Source: Nostoc linckia z4 (lineage in GTDB: Bacteria; Cyanobacteriota; Cyanobacteriia; Cyanobacteriales; Nostocaceae). From it: a stretch of 62,881 nucleotides of DNA. Made by a program: the position numbers and the translations under genes. Numbering within the stretch: the stretch's first letter is position 1; the number at the start of each line of letters is the position of its first letter. The notes under the pieces were generated by a model that saw nothing but the letters and a program-made list of their open reading frames with translations, had not been told where the DNA came from and made no database searches. This document shows positions 32,969-33,121 of this stretch, piece by piece. The stretch lies in the NCBI RefSeq assembly GCF_002608075.1, contig NZ_LAHA01000035.1, positions 14,453 to 77,333 of the forward strand, read 5' to 3'.

Positions 32969-33044
32969 TGGCAGAAAGTGTAAGAATCGAACCTACAACA
33001 AATCGATTATGAGTCGATCGCTCTTCCAATTGAGCTAACTTCCT
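32969..33044 (-). tRNA. tRNA-like gene, anticodon CAU, A1-U72 acceptor, encoded CCA
   Basis: Manual fold: AGGAAGT/ACTTTCT (one G-U), GCTC/GAGC, ATCGA-CTCATAA-TCGAT, GTAGG-TTCGATT-CTTAC, G-CCA. Positional homologue of 31288-31363. Confidence 0.65.
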
Positions 33045-33045
33045 T

Positions 33046-33121
33046 TGGTGTTTGATACAGGACTCGAACCTGCGACACATCGATTATGAGTCGATCGCTC
33101 TGCCAACTGAGCTAATCAAAC
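33046..33121 (-). tRNA. tRNA(CAU), elongator Met or Ile2 type, encoded CCA
   Basis: Manual fold with perfect stems: GTTTGAT/ATCAAAC, GCTC/GAGC, ATCGA-CTCATAA-TCGAT, GCAGG-TTCGAGT-CCTGT, A-CCA. Only 1 nt separates it from the next cloverleaf. Confidence 0.8.

Follow-up and report, generated by a model that had tools for sequence, protein, structure and literature searches.

We analyzed a stretch of 62,881 nucleotides (nt) from the cyanobacterium Nostoc linckia z4 (contig NZ_LAHA01000035.1, positions 14,453 to 77,333; hereafter the window), and in particular a pair of cloverleafs with CAU anticodons that lie back to back on its minus strand, between an open reading frame (ORF) resembling Alr1449 and a gene for a retron-type reverse transcriptase (RT). 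We favor, with modest confidence, the view that these two cloverleafs are not independent genes but tRNA-shaped domains of a composite non-coding RNA (ncRNA) of about 640 nt. This RNA, here termed the module, is organized from 5' to 3' as a promoter-like TGnGCTAAATT element, a branched leader, tRNA-like domain a, tRNA-like domain b, a set of small hairpins and a closed rod of 260-300 nt, with individual modules containing either one or two tRNA-like domains. Two modules are found in the window, where the order on the minus strand is the Alr1449-like ORF, module M1, the RT, module M2 and a gene for a 512-aa Band_7/SPFH protein, henceforth the slipin (Table 1). The CAU pair belongs to M1, and a repeat search revealed that the roughly 120 nt preceding it and 380 nt following it recur around the third cloverleaf of the window, that of M2, as direct repeats (D2-D5 and D8) with 75-92% identity; M2 is recovered by nhmmer with a score of 633 bits.

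The domains flanking the cloverleafs show extensive evidence of base pairing maintained by compensatory change. From 18 leader homologues RNAalifold derives 29 pairs, with compensatory double changes at 11, and from 17 rod homologues it derives 77 pairs, with such changes at 27. The rod comprises a closing helix of 14-15 bp, two internal hairpins, an unpaired CAAUCUUAAUCCAG and, in one of the two clades of modules described below (clade I), an optional extra hairpin. Because the leader and rod are themselves under structural selection, they appear to be parts of a real structured RNA and not a disposable precursor. The 14-nt CAAUCUUAAUCCAG (approximately 32640-32655 and 30955-30970 on the minus strand of the window) is the same in all aligned modules, save for one substitution in a single locus (L008); it is predicted to remain unpaired and is a candidate binding or base-pairing site. 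By both gathering and E-value thresholds, Rfam recognizes only tRNA within the module, along with a sub-threshold match to YrlA, and it has no family for the leader or the rod. Likewise, a literature search recovered no paper describing this RNA, and none tying retrons, an RT of the retron clade, an SPFH protein or this locus to a tRNA-like RNA.

To delineate the module beyond the window, loci were collected from the RT homologues and their contigs, from one genome scan and from one metagenome scan using the nearly invariant rod motif; nhmmer, ARAGORN and tblastn served to map them. An alignment first of 11 modules and later of 25-29, representing about 29 distinct cyanobacterial versions, shows that conservation starts at the 5' motif and continues unbroken as far as GCAGAGT, the closing arm. 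Matches to the module were detected by nhmmer in at least 30 loci, some of them outside any nifD element, and each tRNA called by ARAGORN in these loci falls within a module. Its position is fixed: in every related locus it lies upstream of a slipin/Band_7 gene, which appears to be its constant partner. The genes found beside it across loci are the RT, the slipin, and OmdA/YdeI or DUF4019. In layout A, seen in Nostoc and Oscillatoria, the order is M1, RT, M2 and slipin; in layout B, seen in Scytonema, Cyanosarcina and others, the RT is followed by one module with two cloverleafs and then by the slipin; and in layout C (L015, L016, L025, L042 and L047) the module, sometimes with a small ORF, precedes the slipin, with housekeeping genes upstream and no RT nearby. 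The same RT-less pairing of module and slipin is present in Anabaena PCC 7120 (L054 3709-4332, equivalent to approximately 860,550-861,173 of BA000019.2; nhmmer 347 bits), where no RT is found nearby and the module lies upstream of alr0739 (YdeI/OmdA) and alr0740, the latter being the orthologue of the slipin. In this version tRNA-a has decayed and tRNA-b is called as tRNA-Asn(GUU); the GUU cloverleaf is probably mis-annotated as a tRNA gene, or unannotated as such.

A neighbor-joining tree of 29 modules resolves two clades, of which clade I unites the RT-less modules with the M1 copies of Nostoc, including that of the window, and clade II contains the modules that follow an RT, including M2 of the window, together with both copies from Oscillatoria. 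Given that M1 of the window groups with the RT-less modules, the two CAU cloverleafs appear to belong to a "host"-type module. In the window the RT, with its own module M2, sits between M1 and the slipin gene, and this layout may reflect an insertion of the RT with M2 or, alternatively, the RT-less Nostoc loci L042 (2648-3370) and L047 (748-1498), in which the Alr1449-like neighbor is present as in the window, may represent deletions between direct repeats. Deletions do happen, since another Nostoc locus with this neighbor (L001, 6001-6389) retains of the RT only a stub of 95 residues, behind which the tail of a module is found. Together, these configurations suggest that the RT-M2 unit was gained or lost by recombination between two modules in direct repeat. 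The sequence-only reading of this DNA had described the cloverleafs as physically fused to a retron-type leader; they are indeed continuous with structured RNA up to the RT, but this RNA is no leader specific to retrons, as the module precedes the slipin in every related locus and several of the genomes are RT-less.

Within the window exactly three tRNAs are called by ARAGORN, all on the minus strand, and these are matched by the Rfam tRNA model with E-values from 9.5e-13 to 3e-08, the gathering score of the model being 29. The agreement of the two methods upholds the earlier claim of two genuine tRNA(CAU) cloverleafs with encoded CCA placed 1 nt apart. Copy 1 (domain a of M1) has the acceptor GUUUGAU/AUCAAAC and perfect stems; copy 2 (domain b), separated from it by the single nucleotide A33045, has the acceptor AGGAAGU/ACUUUCU and the same D and anticodon arms, including the anticodon loop CUCAUAA. 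The initial description of copy 2 was accurate as to its A1-U72 pair, shared arms and GCCA end; instead of one G-U pair, however, it contains two, at 3:70 and 52:62, and its end is separated from the ATG of the RT at 32586 by 382 nt, not 365 nt. The derivation of all three cloverleafs from one ancestor, also proposed earlier, is supported by their paralogy, the M1 copies being 80% and 61% identical to the third over 80 nt (repeat family D1). Single-sequence thermodynamic z-scores are unremarkable (-1.6 for copy 1 and -0.8 for copy 2), and the support for these two copies comes from the covariance model and covariation, not from the z-scores. Both M1 copies possess the conserved D-loop and T-loop tertiary nucleotides of elongator tRNAs (ARAGORN, Rfam and covariation). 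Their anticodon loops are of 7 nt, with U33 and a purine at position 37, and their 1:72 pairs are of the Watson-Crick type (G-C and A-U, respectively), two traits that vary across the family. A loop of this kind is absent from many tRNA-a orthologues, where it has 4-6 nt, and from the M2 cloverleaf, whose anticodon arm AUCGG-UGUAUCG-CCGAU forms a stem of 8 bp capped by a UAU triloop (G33, C37) and is thus predicted to be incapable of decoding. The pair G3-U70 is the major alanine identity element, and copy 2 combines it with a CAU anticodon; a conserved mistranslation device was considered on this account and rejected, as A3-U70 and U3-A70 alternate at this position among the homologues.

Comparison of 33 homologous cloverleafs indicates what has been conserved in these domains. 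In the standard tRNA structure 97.4% of the cells are paired and 14 of the 21 pairs show double changes; none of 500 shuffles was as good, and registers slid along the alignment are only 32-42% paired. Covariation in the acceptor stem largely reflects the paralogy between the a and b types, and the D, anticodon and T stems also change in compensatory fashion within each type, as exemplified by the D-stem GCUC/GAGC, which becomes GAGC/GCUC in Oscillatoria, and by the anticodon stem AUCGA/UCGAU, which becomes GUUGG/CCAAU in the locus L027. At the orthologous tRNA-b position of clade I, six different triplets occur as anticodon (CAU, UAU, AUU, UCU, CAG and GUU), all within a C/U-U-NNN-A-A frame, so that the conserved anticodon and identity expected of an elongator tRNA are not observed. 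In clade II, tRNA-b has the fixed loop UGUAUCG (G33, C37). The anticodon arm of the tRNA-a orthologues is variable, with a loop of 4 to 7 nt depending on the lineage, and 13 of 19 tRNA-b sequences lack a pair at 1:72. Since pairing is kept by covariation while the anticodon, the loop size and 1:72 vary, selection appears to act on the tRNA shape and the 3' end, and not on decoding; the presence of an encoded N73-CCA in 23 of 29 tRNA-b copies fits selection on a tRNA-like 3' end. These patterns bear on two of the three roles that the sequence-only reading had offered for the cloverleafs. That of spare tRNAs is unlikely as a conserved function, given that the anticodon changes between orthologues and some copies are non-decoding, and that of an old tRNA-targeted integration is at odds with elements that lie within a conserved RNA, are duplicated with the module and are kept by compensatory substitutions. 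The same reading had named, as an outcome that would count against it, a cloverleaf that is the genome's only tRNA-Ile2 or elongator tRNA-Met gene and that RT-less relatives share at the same site. Relatives without an RT do have the element at this site, but with other anticodons, and the cloverleaf therefore cannot be the host's sole tRNA-Met or tRNA-Ile2.

An arm with the UGUAUCG loop, or a compensated AUUGG/CCAAU version of it, is found in one tRNA-like domain of every RT-linked locus and in no RT-less module. It is mostly borne by tRNA-b, and by tRNA-a in Cyanosarcina (L051). This arm could be a recognition feature for the RT or a mere marker of the clade.

The body of the cloverleaf shows matches of about 80% to tRNA-Arg and tRNA-Lys in E. 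coli, and its phage matches are to tRNA-Met and tRNA-Gly genes; as the matches in E. coli, phages and plasmids are equally generic, no isotype is favored. No match to the module was found in viral contigs, and the cloverleaf-body matches in plasmids, phages and E. coli are to generic tRNA only, with none annotated in plasmids. An origin of the module from a phage or plasmid was accordingly rejected. The Alr1449-like ORF (34233..33541, minus strand) was also considered as a part of the system and rejected, being absent from the loci of Oscillatoria, Scytonema and PCC 7120; it probably represents only the context of the nifD element.

The RT of the window belongs to the retron clade and has an intact YADD motif. 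Its match to the PADLOC RT_XIII profile spans positions 99-430 of 469, the N-terminal extension of about 100 aa that typifies canonical type XIII RTs being missing, and it is 57-62% identical to canonical cyanobacterial members of this type. Type XIII retrons (Mestre et al. 2020, clade 10) resemble the present locus in the clade of their RT and in that the RT adjoins a long, structured ncRNA closed by an inverted repeat. The type XIII family is defined as including WH-SWIM (cluster 114) and ARM/HEAT (cluster 216) accessory proteins (PMC7736814), and no PADLOC match to either was found among the neighboring ORFs of the window, where the partner is instead the slipin. Conversely, canonical type XIII loci, which encode HEAT, SWIM and a 469-aa RT, as in the locus L010, have neither a tRNA nor a module, and nhmmer detected no match between the module and the ncRNA region of two such loci (L010 and L011). 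The module further differs from the RNA of these retrons in its tRNA-like domains and in its existence apart from an RT: the rod RNA with its 14-15-bp closing inverted repeat adjoins the RT, and the same RNA family also occurs without one. The RT probably joined the locus in one sub-lineage; where it is present, the adjacent module is probably its RNA partner.

A connection to the translational stress response emerges from the sequences bordering the module. At its 5' end, TG.TA is invariant in the module alignment and the flanking positions are nearly so; the motif reads TGTGCTAAATT in the window and ATGCTACATT in PCC 7120, and resembles the published trcR promoter ATACTACACT, with the -10 element TACACT (PMC10272220). 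The predicted transcript origin in PCC 7120 is the motif TGCTACATT, near 860,583 on the plus strand. A generic scan for sigma-70 -35/-10 elements and terminators gave nothing above the expectation from shuffles and made no call at the module start. We infer that the 5' motif is a promoter under the control of TrcR, a regulator of PCC 7120 that has been described as functionally equivalent to RtcR (PMC10272220). In that organism deletion of trcR raises alr0739 71-fold and alr0740 42-fold, and the promoter of alr0739 is bound by TrcR (Wang et al. 2023; PMC10272220). The TrcR regulon includes the trn tRNA array of 26 genes, which is carried on a plasmid and is silent in standard conditions, rtcB (encoding the RNA ligase RtcB), rsgA and rimK, and responds to antibiotics that target translation; its operator, approximately TGTAGTAT, overlaps -10 elements (PMC10272220). 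Of the 29 modules scanned, about 20 have an exact copy of TGTAGTAT located 10-30 nt past the rod's closing arm. Such boxes are present at nearly all modules that precede a slipin gene (the exceptions being L015, L016 and L025), and often occur in tandem or inverted with ATACTACA, PCC 7120 having two tandem boxes (L054, 4430-4450 region). At the junction of M1 and the RT the box is weaker, reading TGTATTAT in several Nostoc; in layout B, a box precedes some of the RT genes. The placement of the window's operator directly behind the M2 rod, with tandem boxes at the same place in PCC 7120, implies that the cassette in the nifD element may be wired to a repressor responding to translational stress.

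Table 1. Features of the module locus in the window, in 5' to 3' order of the minus strand
Feature	Coordinates	Strand	Remarks
M1 5' motif TGTGCTAAATT	33235..33245	-	Extended -10-like reading, TAAATT at 33240..33235; transcript predicted to begin near 33229
M1 leader domain, about 110 nt	33122..33229	-	Branched fold closed by AUAG.../...CUAU
tRNA-like domain a (M1)	33121..33046	-	CAU anticodon, G1-C72, 3' end ACCA; ARAGORN, Rfam 68.2 bits, covariation
tRNA-like domain b (M1)	33044..32969	-	CAU anticodon, A1-U72, G3-U70, 3' end GCCA; ARAGORN, Rfam 63.2 bits, covariation
M1 spacer, three small hairpins	32881..32968	-	AACCC/GGGUU, CUACC/GGUAG, CGAAUC/GAUUCG; read from sequence; kept in clade I modules
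M1 3' rod domain	32603..32880	-	Closed by ACUCUGCGGUGCAAGUG / CACUUGCAUUAGCAGAGU; contains nearly invariant unpaired CAAUCUUAAUCCAG
Retron-type RT, 350 aa, YADD motif	31534..32586	-	Pfam RVT_1 1.7e-23; PADLOC RT_XIII 9.6e-150
Module M2	30918..31488	-	Same 5' motif at 31488..31478, leader, single tRNA-like domain, rod at 31178..30918
tRNA-like domain of M2	31363..31288	-	ARAGORN label tRNA-Ile(UAU); Rfam 51.9 bits
UGUAUCG arm	within 31288-31363	-	Also in L002, L004, L006, L007, L009, L021, L022, L023, L029, L044, L049, L051 and L052
TrcR-type operator TGTAATAT-A-ATACTACA	30913..30897	-	Inverted repeat around a perfect TATAAT (30908..30903); behind the M2 rod, 118 nt upstream of the slipin start codon
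Slipin/Band_7 protein, 512 aa	29241..30779	-	Five N-terminal beta repeats, SPFH domain, long helix; Pfam Band_7 5e-29

Taking these observations together, we consider it somewhat probable that the cloverleafs function as tRNA-mimic or processing domains of a stress-linked ncRNA. The selected feature would be the tRNA shape itself, namely the acceptor/T minihelix, the D/T elbow and, usually, the N73-CCA end. According to this proposal the primary transcript would be cut by the tRNA-maturation machinery, with RNase P acting on the 5' side of each cloverleaf; as only 0-6 nt lie between the two, tRNA-a would have its 3' end completed by the cut at tRNA-b. In cyanobacterial tRNA processing an encoded CCA disfavors RNase Z, and the encoded CCA would tend to leave tRNA-b on the rod domain as a 5' cap. 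Three products would then result, namely the leader, a separate piece resembling tRNA-a and the rod with tRNA-b as its cap. The cloverleafs may also, or instead, provide a tRNA-mimic handle to factors of translation or tRNA surveillance under translational stress. Recognition by RNase P would call for just such a conserved acceptor/T/D framework and CCA, with the anticodon left free to vary; these features would also suit a CCA-sensitive 3' processing step or factors that read the elbow. Among the three roles proposed at the outset, the provision of a promoter and processing sites remains the most plausible.

Several points weigh against this interpretation. The evidence on TrcR comes from the orthologues in PCC 7120 and not from the organism of the window, in which, moreover, the box at the M1-RT junction is degenerate. 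The transcript, its processing sites and its cleavage by RNase P or RNase Z are themselves predictions from sequence, as is the promoter, whose invariant motif escapes the generic -35/-10 scan. Both M1 copies have the canonical CUCAUAA loop, and copy 1 in addition has a perfect acceptor with A73-CCA; these copies could well be charged by methionyl-tRNA synthetase (MetRS) in vivo. Furthermore, in clade I the C/U-U-NNN-A-A frame of the loop is kept though the NNN changes, and a structural mimic would have no obvious need of it. Finally, an RT encoded elsewhere might in principle serve the RT-less loci.

One alternative is that the cloverleafs are functional supernumerary tRNAs for Met, or for Ile2 after lysidine formation, which would be induced under translational stress like the 26-gene trn array and embedded in a mere precursor. 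High tRNA scores from ARAGORN and Rfam, the 7-nt loops with U33 and A37 in the M1 copies of the window and in all tRNA-b of clade I, the N73-CCA encoded in 23 of 29 copies, and the co-regulation of the neighboring operon with the trn operon in PCC 7120 (PMC10272220) are all compatible with such a function. Against this, the six triplets at the orthologous position mean that no specific codon supply is conserved, each RT-linked locus has one copy with a non-decoding triloop, 13 of 19 tRNA-b have a mismatch at 1:72, the acceptor stems are A/U-rich and no isotype is favored, and the leader and rod are under structural selection of their own. We regard a role as spare tRNAs as unlikely overall: it is conceivable for the two CAU copies of the window, but it does not explain the family. 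A different proposal is that the tRNA-like domains serve the RT, either by priming through the 3' CCA-OH or as a 3' tRNA-like initiation site, so that the locus would be a tRNA-primed variant of a retron. A tRNA 3' end primes the RT in retroviruses and long terminal repeat elements, and tRNA-like initiation is known in the Mauriceville retroplasmid of Neurospora. The cloverleafs adjoin an RT of the retron clade in about 20 loci, the CCA is encoded, and all RT-linked loci have the UGUAUCG arm, which the RT-less ones uniformly lack. However, this correlation may reflect a single inherited change, M1 of the window is of the clade I type that is found without an RT, and canonical type XIII loci lack a tRNA. 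A primer-binding site in the style of retroviruses was sought in 25 modules by testing with RNAduplex how the 16 nt at the 3' end of each tRNA pair with the leader and the downstream RNA, and was rejected; pairing was weak, the best duplexes having energies of -8 to -18 kcal/mol, and its location was not conserved from one homologue to the next. We accordingly assign a service to the RT little probability.

The cloverleafs might instead be bait or decoy tRNAs for invading anticodon nucleases or ribotoxins, soaking these up or tripping a response by the slipin or RT. The clustering of changes in the anticodon loop of a nearly invariant body, the presence of RtcB in the same regulon in PCC 7120 and the setting of the window's cassette among defense genes (restriction-modification, the TriTu immunity protein and CRISPR) could all be accommodated by such a function. 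It is, however, purely inferential and postulates a hypothetical nuclease partner; there are about six independent anticodon changes; and a slipin that is at least 79% identical across orders in most matches is unlike a fast-evolving defense effector. This makes a decoy function very unlikely in our estimation. The least probable explanation, with a likelihood close to negligible, is that the cloverleafs are decaying relics, i.e., tRNA pseudogenes left by the integration of a mobile element or by duplication of an attachment site. Their location inside an excision element and the non-canonical loop of the third copy would be in line with decay, yet compensatory substitutions hold all four helices across cyanobacterial orders, the position of the module is fixed in at least 30 loci, including some outside nifD elements, and the ends of the nifD element are 11-bp repeats at 26206 and 58705 and not tRNAs. 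As regards contacts within the RNA, a kissing interaction between the anticodon loop and the leader (UAUGAG of the leader with CUCAUA in Nostoc M1) was considered and rejected, since inspection by eye found no covariation in the L006, L008, L015, L016 and M2 modules.

Larger RNAs with tRNA-like domains are already known, namely the Y RNAs, tmRNA and the tRNA-like ends of viral and retroplasmid RNAs; hence a tRNA-like domain inside a larger RNA is of a known kind, and what is new here is the architecture of the cyanobacterial RNA and its partners. The closest functional analogy to the module is the tRNA-like domain of Y RNAs encoded in the Rsr/RtcB stress operon. In bacterial Y RNA (YrlA, RF02553, in rsr-yrlBA-rtcBA), as in the module, a tRNA-like domain mimicking the acceptor, T and D elements is part of a larger structured ncRNA that is encoded beside a gene for a ring- or cage-forming protein and takes part in a response to RNA damage or translation stress that includes RtcB. 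The differences are nevertheless considerable: the covariance match in the window, which covers the tRNA part only, reaches 28 bits (E 0.003) where the gathering score is 69; the partner of the module is an SPFH/slipin protein instead of Ro60/Rsr, with no rsr neighbor in the loci examined; and the module, about six times longer, has two complete cloverleafs including the anticodon arms, as well as the leader and rod. With the trn operon of PCC 7120 the module shares the combination of tRNA-type genes within one regulon with alr0739-alr0740 and of TrcR boxes over the -10 element. Unlike that operon, it is chromosomal and located beside the slipin, has one or two cloverleafs with unstable or non-decoding anticodons, and is fused to non-tRNA domains; nor do the cloverleafs have any special sequence similarity to plasmid tRNA arrays. 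A further parallel is offered by the mascRNA of MALAT1, the tRNA punctuation of mitochondrial transcripts and engineered arrays of tRNAs with guide RNAs, in all of which cloverleafs recruit RNase P and RNase Z and define the ends of the neighboring RNA irrespective of the anticodon. These examples differ in being eukaryotic, organellar or synthetic, and Rfam 15 contains no bacterial ncRNA family of such a design.

The slipin matches stomatin in the PDB (1.7e-23), and its AF2 model has a pLDDT of 82. Most of its best 120 matches are at least 79% identical, about ten longer forms (640-675 aa) being 65-73% identical, and its homologues span Nostocales, Chroococcidiopsis, Gloeothece and Oscillatoria. 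The modeled succession of beta repeats, SPFH domain and long helix suggests a vault-like cage architecture. This raises the prospect, decidedly unlikely though it is, that the locus encodes a vault-like ribonucleoprotein (RNP), in which a soluble cage resembling the major vault protein (MVP) in layout (with beta repeats, an SPFH shoulder and a cap helix) would be combined with a dedicated multi-domain RNA whose tRNA-derived domains act as a handle or bait toward the tRNA pool or translation machinery; it would be switched by TrcR and, in some lineages, armed with an RT that copies part of the RNA. Several differences from the vault RNP stand out. The best matches of the slipin by score are plain stomatins, its TM-scores to MVP are about 0.3, it has five beta repeats where MVP has nine, and RNA binding by it is only putative. 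The bacterial MVP homologues reported earlier (bioRxiv 10.1101/872010) are a different protein.

Three odd "tRNA genes" have thus led to a large, widely conserved, multi-domain cyanobacterial RNA that lies outside Rfam and the searchable literature. A genetically tractable copy of the module is available in Anabaena PCC 7120, directly upstream of an operon that responds 40-70-fold to the loss of TrcR. Testable questions that arise concern the role of the soluble slipin of cyanobacteria, the part played by bacterial tRNA mimics in stress beyond the Y RNAs and tmRNA, and the grafting of an RT of the retron clade onto a pre-existing host pair of RNA and protein. The results also carry a warning for annotation, as predictors call such cloverleafs tRNA-Met, Ile, Asn, Arg, Leu or Tyr despite their unconserved anticodons.

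With respect to the genomic setting, the cassette lies, as stated earlier, inside a nifD excision element: exact 11-bp direct repeats GGATTACTCCG at 26206-26216 and 58705-58715 (plus strand) bound an insert of 32.5 kb, with nifH and the 5' part of nifD before it and nifK and nifE after it. Besides the RT/slipin cassette, the cargo of this element includes a type II restriction-modification pair (27015-29116), a TriTu immunity protein (26592-26924), a patatin-like protein and an NPHP3-type NTPase. Outside the element there is a CRISPR array with 20 repeats (15410-16811, minus strand; Rfam CRISPR-DR5). Upstream of M1, the Alr1449-like ORF is flanked by GC-rich inverted repeats of 30 nt (CCGGGCGGG...; 33411-33440 and 34436-34465), which are 83% complementary.

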